A stretch of DNA of 41,224 nucleotides from an uncultured Candidatus Peribacteria bacterium (GCA_964548055.1 CAZJPS010000003.1:1-41224), one strand, 5' to 3'; counted from the stretch's first letter, positions 15,546 to 38,102 are shown. The notes: generated by a model not told the origin, from the letters alone. Numbers and translations are program-made.

Positions 15546-15683
15546 GAATTTTTGAGTGGAATCATACTATTCTAGCAGAAAACGTGGCTAGAGGGAAGGA
15601 TGTGGCTGAGAAAACAGCATATGCCTCAAAAGCTCTTAAAATGGCTTTTCAGAGCCCCTTTCTCCGCTACACTGCCTTCGCCC

Positions 15684-17234
15684 ATGAAACGAGCCCTCCT
15701 CTCGGTATCCGATAAGGCCGGCATCACAGATTTTGCACGCGGTCTCGTAGGAGCTGGATACCAGATCATATCCACAGGAGGAACACTCACTCATCTCACA
15801 AAAGAAGGCATCGACGTAACATCGGTAGAAGACATCACAAAATTTCCCGAATGTTTTGGAGGACGAGTGAAGACCATGCACCCCCTCATCATGGGAGGCA
15901 TTTTATTTCGCCGTGAGAATGCAGATGATGTGAAAGAGGCAAAAAAACTCGGCATTGAACCGATCGATATCGTGGTGGTGAATTTGTATCCGTTTAAAAA
16001 GACGGCAGAAGACCCTAGTAAAACTGATGCAGAAATTATTGAGCAGATTGATATTGGAGGACCAACACTGCTCCGAAGTGCAGCAAAAAATCATACGTCG
16101 GTGACTGTCGTGTGCGATAGCGCTGATTACGATCGCATTCTCTCGGAATTAAAAAAAAGTGGAGAAACATCGCTCGAGTTGAGAGCTGAGCTCGCCGCAA
16201 AAGTGTTCCTCCACACCGCTGCATACGATGCGATGATCGCGGAATATCTCTCCGAAGGACAAACTATGGGAGTGATTCTTACACAAGGAACTCCGCTACG
16301 GTATGGGGAAAACCCGCATCAGTGGGGAAAGTATTATGGGCTCTTCGAGCCAGTGGAAAGCGGAAAGTGGAAGGTGGAAAGTTCTGAACTCTCAACTTCC
16401 AAAACATGGGGAACTTTGCATCAAGGTAAAGCTCTCAGCTATCTAAATATTCTCGATGCCGATGCTGCATGGTCCGCTGTGTGTGAATTTGAAGAACCAA
16501 CTGCGGTGTTTGTGAAACACACAAATCCAAGTGGAATCGCCTCAGCAAAAACTATCGAAGAAGCTTTCCAACGTGCGTACGATGCCGATCGCCTCTCCGC
16601 CTTTGGCGTGATCATCGCTCTTAATAGACCATGCACAGAGGAAATTGCCAAAAAAATTATTGAGCAGAAAATTTTTACGGAAGTGATCATTACAGAAAGC
16701 TACGAAAAAGGAGCACTAAAAGTTCTTCAGGAAAAACCAAACATCCGCGTGATCGAACAAAAAGTTCGTCCCAATGGAGCCGTGCAATATCGCTCCGTCC
16801 TGGGAGGAATGCTGGTGCAAAATTCAGACCACAGAATTGTGACAGAAAAGGACTTCACAGTGGTGACAGATAAGAAGCCGACCAAAGAGCAGATCTCTGA
16901 TCTTCTCTTCGCCTGGAAAGCCGTAAAATATGCCAAATCAAACGCAATTGTGTTCGCAAAAGATCAGGTAACTGTCGGGATCGGTGCAGGTCAGACTAGC
17001 CGTGTCGATTCCACCTGGATCGCCGTCAAACGCGCAGGGGACCGTGCCAAAGGCGCCGTAATGGCTAGTGATGCCTTCTTCCCTTTCCCTGATTCCTTAG
17101 AAGAAGCTGCCAAAGCCGGCGTCAGTGCCATCATCCAGCCGGGAGGATCTATTAAAGATGCTGATGTATTCGCAAAAGCGAATGAGTTGGGAATTGTGAT
17201 GGTCACGACAGGCGTGAGGGCGTTTCGACATTAG
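15684..17234 (+). CDS. purH: bifunctional AICAR transformylase / IMP cyclohydrolase
   Basis: I trimmed the track ORF to MKRALLSVSDKAGI (ATG 15684), the canonical MGS-like N-terminus. Motifs present: YGENPHQ, GKALSYLNILDADAA, QTSRVDS and ASDAFFPF. It contains an in-frame heptamer element at 16353-16405. Confidence 0.92.
   Translation: MKRALLSVSDKAGITDFARGLVGAGYQIISTGGTLTHLTKEGIDVTSVEDITKFPECFGGRVKTMHPLIMGGILFRRENADDVKEAKKLGIEPIDIVVVNLYPFKKTAEDPSKTDAEIIEQIDIGGPTLLRSAAKNHTSVTVVCDSADYDRILSELKKSGETSLELRAELAAKVFLHTAAYDAMIAEYLSEGQTMGVILTQGTPLRYGENPHQWGKYYGLFEPVESGKWKVESSELSTSKTWGTLHQGKALSYLNILDADAAWSAVCEFEEPTAVFVKHTNPSGIASAKTIEEAFQRAYDADRLSAFGVIIALNRPCTEEIAKKIIEQKIFTEVIITESYEKGALKVLQEKPNIRVIEQKVRPNGAVQYRSVLGGMLVQNSDHRIVTEKDFTVVTDKKPTKEQISDLLFAWKAVKYAKSNAIVFAKDQVTVGIGAGQTSRVDSTWIAVKRAGDRAKGAVMASDAFFPFPDSLEEAAKAGVSAIIQPGGSIKDADVFAKANELGIVMVTTGVRAFRH
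16353..16405. repeat. GTGGAAA-heptamer palindromic element, compact copy inside purH
   Basis: GTGGAAA GCGGAAA GTGGAAG GTGGAAA GTTCTGA ACTCTCAACTTCCAAAAC. It is translated as VESGKWKVESSELSTSK. Confidence 0.75.
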
Positions 17235-17244
17235 ATGAAAAAGA

Positions 17245-17325
17245 GATAAAGGCGATAAAGGCCTCTTATGTAAAAAGACCTTTGTCCCTTTTGTCCCCTT
17301 TTAAACCTTTGTCCCCTTTTAAAGG
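17245..17325. repeat. GA(T/C)AAAGG / CCTTTGTCCCC palindromic repeat between convergent purH and recR
   Basis: Left arm GATAAAGGCGATAAAGGCC; right arm GACCTTTGTCCCTTTTGTCCCCTTTTAAACCTTTGTCCCCTTTTAAAGG. It belongs to the same family as 24556-24648. Confidence 0.75.
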
Positions 17326-17952: not shown

Positions 17953-18032
17953 CGTTTATTCGATAATTCGTTTACTCGTTTATTCGAATAACAATTTCGC
18001 GAATAAACGAATCAACGAGTAAACCAATAAAC
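17953..18032. repeat. palindrome of four CGTTTAYT 8-mers per arm
   Basis: CGTTTATT CGATAATT CGTTTACT CGTTTATT CG, a 12-nt loop, then CGAATAAACGAATCAACGAGTAAACCAATAAACG. The outer and inner units pair perfectly. Confidence 0.8.
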
Positions 18033-18043
18033 GAAAGAGTGCA

Positions 18044-20237: not shown

Positions 20238-20244
20238 GGTCAAA

Positions 20245-20341
20245 GTGGAAAGTGAAAAGCTGAGAGTTGAAAGTTATGGAAGCAGTCCTCCATTCGAGTA
20301 ATACGAGTTTCACTTTCCACTTTCCACTCTCAACTTTCAAC
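20245..20341. repeat. GTGGAAA-heptamer palindromic element, full intergenic copy
   Basis: GTGGAAA GTGAAAA GCTGAGA GTTGAAA GTTATGGAAGCAG...core...GTTTCAC TTTCCAC TTTCCAC TCTCAAC TTTCAAC. Confidence 0.8.
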
Positions 20342-20350
20342 TAATAATAA

Positions 20351-22625: not shown

Positions 22626-24554
22626 ATGACAGAACAACAAGGAGGAGAGCGTGCATCCCCAAGTGGGCAGCGCTCATCGGAGACGGGAAATACACCCCGC
22701 CCACCATCCCAGCAAAAACCGGGGCAGCCCTTTCGACATAATAACCGGAGGAGACGCTTCCGAAGAAAACCACTATCACCTTCCGTTCCTTTCCAAGGAC
22801 CAAAGCCCATTCTTCCTACTGTAGGAGGAACTGCTTCCCCTGTTCCTGCGGCACAACCTGCCGTGGTACAGACGGGAGGAATACGCAAAGGAAACCTGCG
22901 CGTGTATCCGCTGGGAGGGTTTGAACAGGTAGGTCGTAACTGCTTCGTGATTGAAGTAGACGACGATATATATTTGATCGATCTAGGCCTTCAATTTCCA
23001 GATGAAGATATGTTGGGAATTGATTATTTGATTCCTGATATCTCCACACTCCGCGGGCGAGAGAATCGTATTAAAGCGGTTCTGTTCACGCATGGGCACC
23101 TAGACCACATTGGAGCAGCGCAGCATTTATTACCCGCTCTCCACTTTCCACCCTGCTACGGCACTCGCCTCACCATGGCATTTGTACGCAAGCGCCTGGA
23201 AGAGGAAAAGCTGAATGCCAAGGCACAGCTCAATACCGTAAACTTCCGTGAGAAAGTAAAAATTGGAAAAATTACTGTGGAATTCTTGCGTGTCACGCAC
23301 TCCATACCAGACTCAGCCGCCATTGCCGTGCACACTCCGTATGGGACGATCGTGCACACGGGTGACTTCAAGTTTGACCTCACTCCTATGAACGAACCGC
23401 CTGCGGATTTTCACCGCCTGGCTGAACTGGGAGATGAAGGAGTATTGGCCATTATTGCCGATTCCACCAACGCAACAAAACCCGGACACAGTAAAAGCGA
23501 GAAAGAAATCTCGCAGACACTCTTCGGTCTCATTCGTGATGCAAAAGGCAGAGTAATTATCTCTACCTTCAGTTCACTTTTGAATCGCCTTGAACAAGTG
23601 ATCGAACACGCACGCAGATTCAATCGCAAAGTATTTATTTCTGGCCGCAGCATGGAAGCCAACATCGATATCGCCCAGCAGCTGGGTTACATCAAGGCTC
23701 CACGGGGTCTCATCCGTAAGGTAAATCCTGCCATGGATAAGCTTCCGGATAGCGAAGTGCTTATCCTTACCACGGGTAGCCAAGGAGAAGAGGTGGCAGG
23801 CCTTGCCCGCATGGGCCTTGGTACACACCGTCACATCACTATTAAAAAGGGCGATACCGTCGTATTAAGCTCCAATCCTATTCTTGGAAACGAACGCGCC
23901 GTTGCAAAAGTGGTGAATAACCTCAATTTGCTGGGTGCACACGTAAAAACCAATCAGGAATTAGCACTGCATACAACGGGACACGGCTATCAGCAGGATC
24001 TCCTCCTCATGCACCGCCTTGTGCGTGCGCGCCATATCATTCCCGAACACGGTGAACCACACATGCGCTCTGCTCATGCAGATCTTGTGCGAGGAATTGG
24101 GTACCCAGAGAACCAAGTGCACCTCCTCGTGAACGGAGAAATTATTGAATTCGATGCGAAAGGTGATGCTAGGCGCAGTAAACAGAAAGTACCCTACCGC
24201 GATGTGATTATTGATGGACGCGGCTCTGCCGGTGAAGGCCAAAAGACTCTGGATGATCGCAAAATCATGAGTACCTCCGGGATGATTATCATCCTCTTTA
24301 AGGTGTACACCGATAGTAAGCGCTTGGTAGCCGATCCCGAAGTGCTCTCACGCGGGTTCCTGTATGGCTCGGAACAAACCGAGATCAGCCGAGAAATTAT
24401 TCAAACTTCACGCAAAGCCTACGAAGACGAACTGAACAGAGGTGAAAAGGATCGCAAAGCCCTCAAGCGAGCGATCACAGGTGCACTCTTCCGCTATTTC
24501 GATCGCAAGCTAGACCGCGAGCCGATGGTGATTCCACTTATGGTTGAGGTTTAA
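22626..24554 (+). CDS. rnj: ribonuclease J (beta-CASP metallo-beta-lactamase) with basic disordered N-terminal extension
   Basis: Motifs FTHGHLDHIGA, VHTGDFKFDLTP and a beta-CASP segment, followed by the C-terminal domain. The first ~85 aa are low-complexity (RRRRFRRKP). Confidence 0.9.
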   Translation: MTEQQGGERASPSGQRSSETGNTPRPPSQQKPGQPFRHNNRRRRFRRKPLSPSVPFQGPKPILPTVGGTASPVPAAQPAVVQTGGIRKGNLRVYPLGGFEQVGRNCFVIEVDDDIYLIDLGLQFPDEDMLGIDYLIPDISTLRGRENRIKAVLFTHGHLDHIGAAQHLLPALHFPPCYGTRLTMAFVRKRLEEEKLNAKAQLNTVNFREKVKIGKITVEFLRVTHSIPDSAAIAVHTPYGTIVHTGDFKFDLTPMNEPPADFHRLAELGDEGVLAIIADSTNATKPGHSKSEKEISQTLFGLIRDAKGRVIISTFSSLLNRLEQVIEHARRFNRKVFISGRSMEANIDIAQQLGYIKAPRGLIRKVNPAMDKLPDSEVLILTTGSQGEEVAGLARMGLGTHRHITIKKGDTVVLSSNPILGNERAVAKVVNNLNLLGAHVKTNQELALHTTGHGYQQDLLLMHRLVRARHIIPEHGEPHMRSAHADLVRGIGYPENQVHLLVNGEIIEFDAKGDARRSKQKVPYRDVIIDGRGSAGEGQKTLDDRKIMSTSGMIIILFKVYTDSKRLVADPEVLSRGFLYGSEQTEISREIIQTSRKAYEDELNRGEKDRKALKRAITGALFRYFDRKLDREPMVIPLMVEV

Positions 24555-24555
24555 A

Positions 24556-24648
24556 GCGGACAAACGTTGTAAAGGTTTTAAAGGGGACAAAGGCCTAAAA
24601 ACTTTTGTCCCTCTTGTCACTTTTATCCCCTTTGTCCCCTTTTCAAGG
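24556..24648. repeat. GGGGACAAAGG / CCTTTGTCCCC palindromic repeat
   Basis: Left arm GCGGACAAACGTTGTAAAGGTTTTAAAGGGGACAAAGGCC; right arm CTTTTGTCCCTCTTGTCACTTTTATCCCCTTTGTCCCCTTTTCAAGG. Confidence 0.75.
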
Positions 24649-25505: not shown

Positions 25506-26795
25506 TTATCCCTTCACAGTCCTCACTGCCTTCCCCTTCACCTCCCACCCCTCATACGGGGTCCACCCACATTTACTGTGTAGATCTTTGCCGCGAATAG
25601 TCCATGAAACATTTGGATCAACCAAGATGAAATCGCAAAGCGAACCTTCCGCGACATCATTTTTTCTGAGTGAGAAAATGCGATTGGGATTTTGGAAGCA
25701 CAGCCGAAGGATATCTGTTGGCTTCAGTTTTGTAAGCAGCAATGGAAGCATCGTCTCCACTCCTGGTACTCCACTGGGTGCCTCCAAAGGATTTTTCGCC
25801 TTCTTCTCTTCGAAGGTATGTGGCGCATGATCGGTCGAAATACAGTCGACGGTGCCATCCGCTACCCCTTCCCACAGAGCGTCTTGATGCCCCTTGGTGC
25901 GAAGCGGCGGGTTCATTTTTCCAAGCGTTCCAAGCGTCTTGTAGTCATCCGTTGTGAGGAACAAATGATGTGGTGCCACTTCACAAGTCACACCCAAACC
26001 TTCCTTCTTTGCCTCTCGCACAAGCTCAATTCCTTGCTTGGTAGACAAGTGGGCAACATGCAGATGTGTGCCGTGTATGCGAGCCAGAGCGATAGCATCC
26101 GTAATAGACTTCTCCTCGGATTCAGGTGGCCTCATTTTAGAATGAGCACTCACATCACTTTCCACTTTCCACTTTTCACTTTCAACTTTATTCATCGAAG
26201 CATCCTCGCAATGGCACACGACCGTAACGCCGAGTTCCGCACACACCTTAAAAGCCTCATCCAAAATTTCTCCATCAATTTTCTGATCCCCCGTAGAGTG
26301 ATCGAGGTACAGTTTTACGCCGCAACACTGTTTTTTCAGCCTCTGGAGTTCCGCCGAGTCTCCGGTCCATAGTTCTCGTAGGGCAACGAGGTGAACTGCT
26401 TTGGTCACCCCGAAGAAGAACCTGATATCGCACCCGCTTATCTCCTGTGCCCTTCGTACTTTATCTGCCAGCGCTGCAACTGTAACAGTGGGTGGGATGG
26501 TATTAGGCATCTCACACACCGTCGTTACACCTCCTGCAAGCGCACTCATTGCTTCTGTTTTCATGGAGGCTTTGTACTCTAATCCTGGTTCGCGGAAGTG
26601 GACATGACAATCGATCAGTCCCGGCATAATGAGAAGTCCGGTTGCATTAATAACTTCCAAAGTTGAAAGTTGAAAGTTGAAAGTTGAAAGTTCGGACGTG
26701 ATAGATGTGATGGTGCCGTCTTCGATTAAAATATCTACCTGTCGCTCTTCTTGAGAGTTCACGAGTGTGCCGTTTTGGATGAGGAAATTTTTCAT
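25506..26795 (-). CDS. pyrC: dihydroorotase
   Basis: Motifs PGLIDCHVHFREPG and ISTDHAPH. Its ATG overlaps the pyrB stop (ATGA). It contains two heptamer arrays read in frame. Confidence 0.9.
   Translation of the reverse strand: MKNFLIQNGTLVNSQEERQVDILIEDGTITSITSELSTFNFQLSTLEVINATGLLIMPGLIDCHVHFREPGLEYKASMKTEAMSALAGGVTTVCEMPNTIPPTVTVAALADKVRRAQEISGCDIRFFFGVTKAVHLVALRELWTGDSAELQRLKKQCCGVKLYLDHSTGDQKIDGEILDEAFKVCAELGVTVVCHCEDASMNKVESEKWKVESDVSAHSKMRPPESEEKSITDAIALARIHGTHLHVAHLSTKQGIELVREAKKEGLGVTCEVAPHHLFLTTDDYKTLGTLGKMNPPLRTKGHQDALWEGVADGTVDCISTDHAPHTFEEKKAKNPLEAPSGVPGVETMLPLLLTKLKPTDILRLCFQNPNRIFSLRKNDVAEGSLCDFILVDPNVSWTIRGKDLHSKCGWTPYEGWEVKGKAVRTVKG
26156..26189. repeat. heptamer array inside pyrC (CACTTTC orientation on the plus strand)
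   Basis: CACTTTC CACTTTC CACTTTT CACTTTC AACTTT. On the coding (minus) strand it reads KVESEKWKVES. Confidence 0.8.
26652..26692. repeat. heptamer array inside pyrC (GTTGAAA x4 on the plus strand)
   Basis: AACTTCCAAA GTTGAAA GTTGAAA GTTGAAA GTTGAAA GTT. On the coding strand it reads SELSTFNFQLSTLE. Confidence 0.8.
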
Positions 26796-32391: not shown

Positions 32392-32479
32392 GCTGAGAGT
32401 TGAAAGTGAAAAGTTACGAAGCAGATCTGACACAGGTATTTCTTCTAAAACTTTCACCTATTCACTCCCAACTTTCCAC
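32392..32479. repeat. GTGGAAA-heptamer palindromic element, full intergenic copy abutting the DnaA-box cluster
   Basis: GCTGAGA GTTGAAA GTGAAAA GTTACGAAGCAG...core...TTTCACC TATTCAC TCCCAAC TTTCCAC. It shares the 16-mer GCTGAGAGTTGAAAGT with copy 20245-20341. Confidence 0.8.
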
Positions 32480-37980: not shown

Positions 37981-37984
37981 CCTT

Positions 37985-38040
37985 GAGTAAATCCCAAATC
38001 CCAAGCTCCAATGTTGGGATTTGGTCATTGGGATTTACTC
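37985..38040. repeat. TTGGGAT-unit palindrome immediately after the mfd stop
   Basis: GAGTAAATCCCAAATCCCAAGCTCCAATGTTGGGATTTGGTCATTGGGATTTACTC. The outer stem is 13 bp (GAGTAAATCCCAA/TTGGGATTTACTC) and the inner stem is 7 bp. Confidence 0.8.
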
Positions 38041-38102
38041 AAATCGCAGATAGGCGAGATCTAGCCTCAAAGGCTCTTTTCTGCTATACTGGTGAGAAAC
38101 CC

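Follow-up and report, generated by a model that had tools for sequence, protein, structure and literature searches.

How does an essential purine-synthesis enzyme of a minimal-genome bacterium in the Candidate Phyla Radiation (CPR) come to carry repeat DNA that is read in frame? The question was raised by purH, the gene for the bifunctional AICAR transformylase/IMP cyclohydrolase, in a 41,224-nt stretch of DNA from an uncultured Candidatus Peribacteria bacterium. This stretch (the window) corresponds to contig C3 in a genome of 1.19 Mb and 101 contigs (genome G000). Between two motifs of the AICAR-transformylase domain, the DNA is made up of tandem 7-nt units followed by inverted ones. The results suggest that this segment is very probably a compact, gene-less, partly decayed copy of a heptamer element that was fixed in a permissive PurH loop and is carried there as a non-catalytic passenger. 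The features of the gene on which the analysis is based are as follows.

15600-17234, plus strand: purH, a 544-codon open reading frame (ORF) with Pfam and PDB matches
16302-16322, plus strand: YGENPHQ motif, the upstream anchor of the loop, with YGENP and Q invariant in the family alignment
16353-16397, plus strand: the extra 45 nt relative to the family baseline loop (V252-T266, VESGKWKVESSELST), from the 76-sequence PurH alignment
16353-16380, plus strand: left arm, four heptamers GTGGAAA GCGGAAA GTGGAAG GTGGAAA, none containing TGA
16381-16389, no strand: symmetry centre, the 9-nt palindrome GTTCTGAAC, with essentially no core
16386-16405, plus strand: right arm AACTCTCAACTTCCAAAAC, whose inverted units on the minus strand are GTTCAGA, GTTGAGA and an incomplete GGAA
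16425-16469, plus strand: GKALSYLNILDADAA motif, the downstream anchor of the loop, from the sequence and its translation

The repeat segment in purH

The purH ORF matched the Pfam families MGS (1.6e-19) and AICARFT_IMPCHas (6.5e-112), and the closest solved PurH was that of M. tuberculosis (PDB 3zzm, E 1.9e-119). The protein contains the MGS-like IMPCH and AICARFT domains, the catalytic Lys-His pair, and YGENPHQ, and all 61 columns that are invariant in the family were present, including the catalytic K278 and H279 in the numbering of the 516-aa database call (P0002). The 544-codon ORF (P0001) starts 28 codons (15600-15683) upstream of the conserved MKRALLS, and the true start is likely M29 at 15684. 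Since the gene is called in its shorter, 516-aa form in databases, the upstream extension is probably untranslated. Residues 256-266 of P0001 correspond to residues 228-238 of P0002.

The sequence at 16353-16405 was exactly that quoted in the original prediction, GTGGAAA GCGGAAA GTGGAAG GTGGAAA GTT CTG AACTCTCAACTTCCAAAAC, and the Pfam-supported frame of purH reads it as ...FEPVESGKWKVESSELSTSKTWG..., within the longer stretch ...YGLFEPVESGKWKVESSELSTSKTWGTLHQGK..., in agreement with the proposed in-frame reading. The left arm consists of four units with one mismatch to the pattern that defines the family (at least three tandem G[TC][TG]GA[AG]A units), and its complementarity to two other arms of the window, 20312-20342 and 26156-26187, was 84-88%. 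The right arm is short, with about 2.5 inverted units, of which GTTGAGA and GTTCAGA (16383-16396, minus strand) match with at most one mismatch. It abuts the left arm at GTTCTGAAC, consistent with the earlier description of a copy that has both arms and has lost most of its core. An 11-nt identity, ACTCTCAACTT, is common to the right arm and 20326-20336. The right arm had also been said to recur in pyrC at 26651-26661; a similar sequence was found there (TAACTTCCAAA, 10 of 11 positions), but not an identical one.

In computed folds, the palindrome GTTCTGAAC formed the tip of the stem. The hairpin of the purH copy was not more stable than those of shuffled sequences, with z-scores of +0.95 for sense RNA, -0.91 for antisense RNA, and -0.94 for DNA, and it thus looks like a degenerate passenger. 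The intergenic copy, folded over 20238-20348, was more stable than its shuffles (RNA z -2.85), and the stable hairpin that this copy exemplifies for the family was not seen in purH. A structural role of the purH copy in RNA or DNA was dropped as a candidate, the folds of both RNA strands and of DNA being no better than shuffles. No target-site duplication was found by eye at the borders of the segment, which are themselves uncertain to a few bases.

The genome is a metagenome-assembled genome in 101 contigs, in which a misassembly induced by repeats could have placed element DNA into purH. The same stretch was recovered in independent assemblies from at least five studies, including both DNA and RNA runs, on contigs free of joints. 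Misassembly is refuted by these contigs, and the probability of an assembly or sequencing artefact is negligible.

All eight members of the species-level cluster (>=90% identity) retained the insert with point changes only, and two of them carried W257R. Metatranscriptome contigs from four wastewater runs spanned 16100-16700 without a gap or joint. These RNA-derived contigs had three or four substitutions, two of which were inside the element: 16373 G>A is synonymous and converts GTGGAAG to the consensus GTGGAAA, and 16368 T>C causes W257R and changes the unit to GCGGAAG. Contigs from three DNA runs of other studies matched over the parts that they covered, with one substitution (16521). No length variant of the segment was observed in the eight cluster members or in the covered parts of the seven runs. 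The continuity of the RNA contigs and the lack of length variants indicate that the transcript retains the segment and that it is no active microsatellite.

The PurH loop across the family

PurH sequences from 76 genomes of the same Peribacteria family, namely, the present one and 75 orthologues, were aligned, and loop length was defined as the number of nucleotides between the YGENPH and SYLNI anchors. The loop was 102-117 nt long in 44 genomes, which served as the baseline, compared with 153 nt here. The excess over the baseline was 15 residues, V252-T266 (45 nt), as had been predicted approximately. The solved PurH/ATIC structures, a comparison suggested at the outset, lack this 15-residue segment. 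The 120 closest database proteins (62-73% identity) agreed in making the segment extra, and the nearest of them (P0003, P0005, P0006, and P0009; 72-73%) were short-looped; relatives at this level of identity had either a short loop or a different insert.

An AlphaFold2 model was obtained from a 102-sequence alignment, with a mean predicted local distance difference test (pLDDT) score of 94, a predicted template modelling (pTM) score of 0.88, and a template modelling (TM) score of 0.83 to the PurH structure 4a1o. The only stretch with pLDDT below 50 was K256-T266 in P0001 numbering, which comprises 11 of the 15 insert residues. The insert was modelled as a coil without secondary structure between strands 216-220 and 244-247, which is compatible with the surface loop that had been proposed.

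The original prediction had also described the inter-motif segment as variable, and this held across the family. Thirty of the 76 orthologues had at least five extra residues at this loop, and the largest excess was 35 residues. Repeat DNA made up most of these inserts, in which no fewer than 11 heptamer arrays or perfect palindromes could be told apart on inspection. In eight of the 30 inserts, 13-14 of 14 positions matched at period 7, and no other period reached 13. The units of these strong period-7 inserts were CTSAAAA, CAGAAAC, ATGGAAA, ACGACTC, CAGCTCA, AAGCCAA, TTGCGAA, and CTCAAAG. The inserts that could be assigned to a type are listed here by genome.

Perfect or near-perfect period-7 arrays: G010 CTSAAAA; G123 CAGAAAC; G012 ATGGAAA; G064 AAGCCAA
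Two-armed arrays: G138 GAGTCNT/ACGACTC; G044 ATGAGCG/CAGCTCA; G003 TTGCGAA; G104 GAGCTNT/CTCAAAG
C-rich/G-rich palindromes: G024, G070, G144, G115
Perfect palindromes of about 40 nt, not built of heptamers, in frame: G128 (L241) TTTTTCCCGTGGGGCAGGAACGTTCCTGCCCCACGGGAAAAA; G068 (L232) CCCCGGTAGAGACGCGCGAATCGCGCGTCTCTACCGGGG

In a PurH tree constructed with FastTree after masking of the loop, sister genera differed in their excess (G047 +0 and G109 +33; G108 +21 and G024 +111; G103 +12 and G138 +45), and one large clade kept the short loop. Other PurH loops of relatives, near positions corresponding to residues 138-142, 390, and 479 of the present protein, also contained second and third in-frame heptamer inserts (G003, G101 [L084/L242], G012 [L085], G008 [L095], G044 [L237], and G144 [L245]), and these often had the same unit as the insert at the loop studied here in the same genome (G003, G101, and G044). 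As judged from the aligned sequences, this loop is a recurrent insertion hot spot in the family. Such a pattern would be expected if repeat DNA arrives often and the fold determines which insertions are tolerated, and existing repeats possibly act as a landing pad for further inserts. A PurH loop rebuilt repeatedly from unrelated 7-nt repeats within one family provides a natural map of insertion tolerance.

The sister genus G143 had a 21-nt insert that aligned in part with the present one (AGCGGMAA, GAASTCTC, and TTCC), and no GTKGARA arrays were found elsewhere in its genome. In view of this partial alignment, part of the insert may predate the species. The hot-spot nature of the loop, the degenerate hairpin, and the older part of the insert that may be shared with G143 go beyond the original prediction, whose reading of a lineage-specific, heptamer-derived insert in a variable loop was supported.

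Two origins within the loop itself would make the arrival of a dispersed element unnecessary. One is local microsatellite growth by slippage from the ancestral loop codons TGG AAA GT (W-K-V). At the conserved W-K-V, TGGAAAGT is frequent in orthologues without an insert, a 13-mer, GTGGAAAGTTCTG, is common to G014 and the purH copy, this loop carries one-armed arrays in G010, G012, and G123, and the heptamer copy number of the Coxiella intervening sequence varies (PMC4990558). In the clade of the present genome, however, the ancestral W is kept downstream of the insert (TWGTLHQ) and the 13-mer lies in another frame, and on these grounds the W-K-V codons were rejected as the seed of the array for this clade. 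Moreover, the units are heterogeneous (GTGGAAA, GCGGAAA, and GTGGAAG) and accompanied by an inverted arm, units of the same family were found at dozens of further loci, and the cluster members and sequencing runs described above showed no length polymorphism. Slippage is therefore a distinctly unlikely source of the segment.

The other is adaptation: selection would have favoured the residues for some function specific to PurH (for example, a new interaction, regulation, or stability), and their resemblance to a repeat would be accidental. The retention of the insert throughout the species-level cluster and the long loops in most members of the clade are in line with this explanation. By contrast, the residues follow from a DNA repeat that also occurs intergenically and in unrelated proteins, the content of the loop is unrelated between sister genera, the segment is predicted to be disordered, and one of the two strain polymorphisms within it is the radical substitution W257R. 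We consider an adaptive origin highly unlikely.

Heptamer arms and PF05635 genes in the genome

The reading of the purH segment as a copy of a dispersed element depends on the heptamer family to which it belongs. In the window, GTGGAAAG was observed 14 times against 1.6 expected, and the left arm in purH was one of five four-unit arms. Genome-wide, 55 four-unit G[TC][TG]GA[AG]A arms (at most two mismatches) were found, compared with none in three second-order Markov simulations. Period-7 arrays numbered 94 in the genome and three in one Markov simulation, and the array counts for periods 8, 10, and 11 were 7, 0, and 0, respectively. Periods 6 and 9 were also raised, as expected for coding DNA. 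The Markov simulations were taken as the null because a reversed-pattern control was unusable, AAAGTTG being a rotation of GTTGAAA. The heptamer arms exceed chance expectation. The other copies of the GTGGAAA/GTTGAAA family in the window were located as follows.

20245-20341, no strand: full two-armed reference copy, intergenic, RNA fold z -2.85
26155-26187, minus strand: arm in pyrC, in frame, sense
26659-26691, plus strand: (GTTGAAA)x4 arm in pyrC, antisense to the gene and hence stop-free as read
32392-32479, no strand: two-armed copy with a different spacer

Because 7 and 3 have no common factor, successive units of a heptamer array fall into each of the three reading phases in turn, and GTTGAAA therefore yields TGA in any frame after three successive units. 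Among the 34 arms with at least three units, 20 were within ORFs of at least 150 codons, 6 in the sense and 14 in the antisense orientation. The share of TGA-containing units was lowest where the arm is read in the sense of a gene (33%), rose to 65% between genes, and reached 83% in arms antisense to a gene; none of the four units in purH contains TGA. Peptides of the element type were also found in PNPase (VESGKLKVES) and PheT (KVESGKKLKVESKKKTSTFNSQLSTFNF) of the same genome, and STFN/QLST motifs of this type in its FemAB-family, GT4, and GT2 proteins. Across the family, the distribution of GTKGARA arrays was patchy, covering 47 of 151 genomes and 33 of 84 genera, with large differences inside genera.

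Larger elements with heptamer arms were found around genes of PF05635 (23S intervening sequence protein/Avd-like four-helix bundle). In the present genome, inverted heptamer arrays flank all three such genes on both sides, and the unit differs from gene to gene.

C81:2812-3234: PF05635 gene, arm unit TAGGTTG
C21:160-750: PF05635 gene, arm unit TAGGGAC
C8:22694-23155: PF05635 gene, arm unit TTAGGG

Inverted heptamer arrays bracketed 19 of the 41 inspected PF05635 genes on both sides. Arms of the GTGGAAA type bracket PF05635 genes in G005, G048, and G008, and TTGCGAA, the unit of the purH insert in G003, also brackets one PF05635 gene of that genome. In a tree, the PF05635 proteins clustered by arm unit across genera, and the protein distance correlated with the arm-unit distance (Mantel r 0.275; 0 of 10,000 permutations, p about 1e-4). 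At the threshold used, period-7 arrays were absent from the flanks of a large PF05635 clade in relatives (L290, L295, L296, L302, L305, L306, L313-L315, L327, and L329); this clade may be a functionally different subfamily. A relationship between PF05635 and Avd, a protein of diversity-generating retroelements, has been described (PMC10053308).

The gap between comM and pyrF (L330-L341) was found in several states. It is empty and 37 nt long in G004, contains a 78-nt gene-less two-armed heptamer element in G003, and contains full PF05635 elements with differing arms in G000 and G008. In G009 and G014, the gap is occupied by a gene for a Y1 transposase resembling the tyrosine transposases associated with repetitive extragenic palindromic (REP) sequences (RAYTs).

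The latter gene bears on whether the heptamer hairpins are moved by a Y1 (HUH) tyrosine transposase, as in REP/RAYT systems, with the PF05635 genes as mere passengers. Genes of the Y1_Tnp/RAYT type are common in the family, with one in the present genome and up to ten in G009, and the gene in G009 and G014 sits in the very gap where G000 and G008 have PF05635 elements. On the other hand, the only Y1_Tnp-like gene of the present genome (C52:2889-3335; HCH motif, YIHRNPV) had no adjacent heptamer arrays or obvious REP pairs. The arms also lack the conserved GTAG/CGTC tag that is typical of REPs (PMC3733652), and the arm units track the PF05635 proteins. A RAYT-like transposase was thus rejected as the partner in this genome, where the gene is present and unassociated with arrays, and we regard mobilisation of this kind as unlikely.

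For the purH copy as a partly decayed heptamer element, the following course of events may be proposed. A permissive beta-hairpin loop in the AICAR-transformylase domain would have taken up, in frame, an inverted-repeat copy with GTGGAAA/GTTGAAA arms, which became fixed there. The copy is transcribed with purH and most likely translated as a 15-residue surface loop, predicted to be disordered, that would have no catalytic role. The insert survives because 45 nt is a multiple of three, because the sense-strand unit variants are all free of TGA, and because the loop tolerates changes in length, as seen from the unrelated repeat inserts in many related genera. Such gene-less elements would derive from, or share a process with, the larger elements in which heptamer arrays bracket a PF05635 gene. 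The purH copy itself contains no ORF and, we infer, can only be a gene-less derivative of PF05635-bearing elements. The lack of a GTGGAAA-armed PF05635 gene in the genome, the weak hairpin, and the lack of length polymorphism suggest that it is an inactive relic.

We tentatively put forward a broader possibility, in which PF05635 genes with unit-specific inverted arrays might represent, in its gene-bearing form, a class of mobile hairpins that is widespread and has not been described. The protein might recognise its own 7-nt unit, and gene-less elements such as the purH insert, the heptanucleotide arrays of cyanobacteria, and the intervening sequences of 23S rRNA might all be products of that system, whose activity would be recorded in permissive enzyme loops. 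The single purH copy adds little by itself; the hot-spot series and the PF05635 co-variation add more. The co-variation of protein and unit and the series of empty, gene-less, and full states make recognition between protein and unit testable, and the link to PF05635 is a testable lead, not a result.

Several points weigh against these readings. Metatranscriptomes can contain DNA, and carry-over in the RNA libraries is possible; the translation of the segment was deduced from the frame. Low pLDDT is not a measure of solvent exposure, and the designation of the purH copy as a palindromic element rests on its sequence family, not on its structure. No empty-site close relative was available, the nearest genomes being of other genera with at most 73% identity, and in view of this and of the partial match in G143, a single insertion is only presumptive and the insert may be of any age. 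The trees were read as FastTree topologies only. As for the PF05635 genes, about half were without arrays, the arm units for the Mantel test were picked by eye, and no GTKGARA-armed PF05635 gene was detected in the present genome with a custom hidden Markov model applied to all six-frame ORFs.

Relation to described repeats and other repeats in the window

The Rickettsia palindromic elements (RPEs), reportedly described by Ogata and coworkers in 2000 and the subject of a review (PMC10969869), are similar to the purH copy in being short palindromic repeats that are dispersed in a small genome and inserted in frame in conserved genes, where they add a surface segment while the enzyme is retained. 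In-frame insertion of this type into a conserved gene was found for the purH copy, which is most likely translated. RPEs are about 100-150 bp long, have a family-specific consensus, and are not known outside Rickettsia, whereas the purH copy has tandem 7-nt arms, a variable or absent spacer, a length of 45-53 nt, a genome-specific unit, and a CPR host. As compared by description, and with Peribacteria as the host, the purH copy resembles RPEs, and membership is not claimed.

The heptanucleotide short tandemly repeated repetitive (STRR) sequences and small dispersed repeats of cyanobacteria, reportedly described by Mazel in 1990 and by Elhai in 2008, likewise consist of tandem 7-nt units, with many families per genome, frequent inverted pairs, and fast turnover. 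STRRs are mainly intergenic and found in heterocystous cyanobacteria, whereas many of the copies in the present Peribacteria genome are in frame inside enzymes.

The intervening sequence (IVS) of the Coxiella burnetii 23S rRNA gene contains an S23p/PF05635 ORF, terminal inverted repeats, and variable tandem heptamers, and is deemed a selfish element (PMC4990558). The same architecture was found in all three PF05635 genes of the present genome. Unlike the rRNA-borne IVS, the PF05635 elements of Peribacteria are located between protein genes, and the purH copy differs from it in having no ORF and in lying inside a protein-coding gene. Excision by RNase III, which defines an IVS, is not expected for the purH copy and was not seen in the purH RNA contigs, which are continuous.

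MITEs (miniature transposable elements with inverted repeats), REPs, and REP doublets forming hairpins (REPINs) are also small non-coding inverted-repeat DNAs present in many copies. The purH copy seems unlike MITEs and REPs in that no target-site duplication was evident by eye at its uncertain borders, the internal sequence is not conserved, and the GTAG/CGTC tag is absent. No transposase-bearing relative of the arms, of the kind that a MITE would call for, was found, and the gene-bearing relatives carry PF05635 and no known transposase. The association expected for a REP/REPIN-RAYT system was not found either, the sole Y1_Tnp-like gene being unflanked by heptamer arrays.

The literature searched contained no account of such repeats in Peribacteria. 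The system described here is a clean one in which to study the spread of heptamers, whose origin has lacked an explanation ever since their description from cyanobacteria and 23S rRNA IVSs. For annotation, such inserts explain odd low-complexity stretches of CPR proteins and should not be taken for new domains.

The window also contains repeats of other kinds. A separate family with TTTGTCCCC and GGGGACAAA units is located just downstream of purH (17247-17325), and a second copy, 72-77% alike or complementary to the first, is located 7.3 kb away (24550-24648). Compact two-armed heptamer palindromes with other units were found at 17953-18033 (CGTTTAT/TTCGTTTA) and 37983-38042 (TTGGGAT/AATCCCA).

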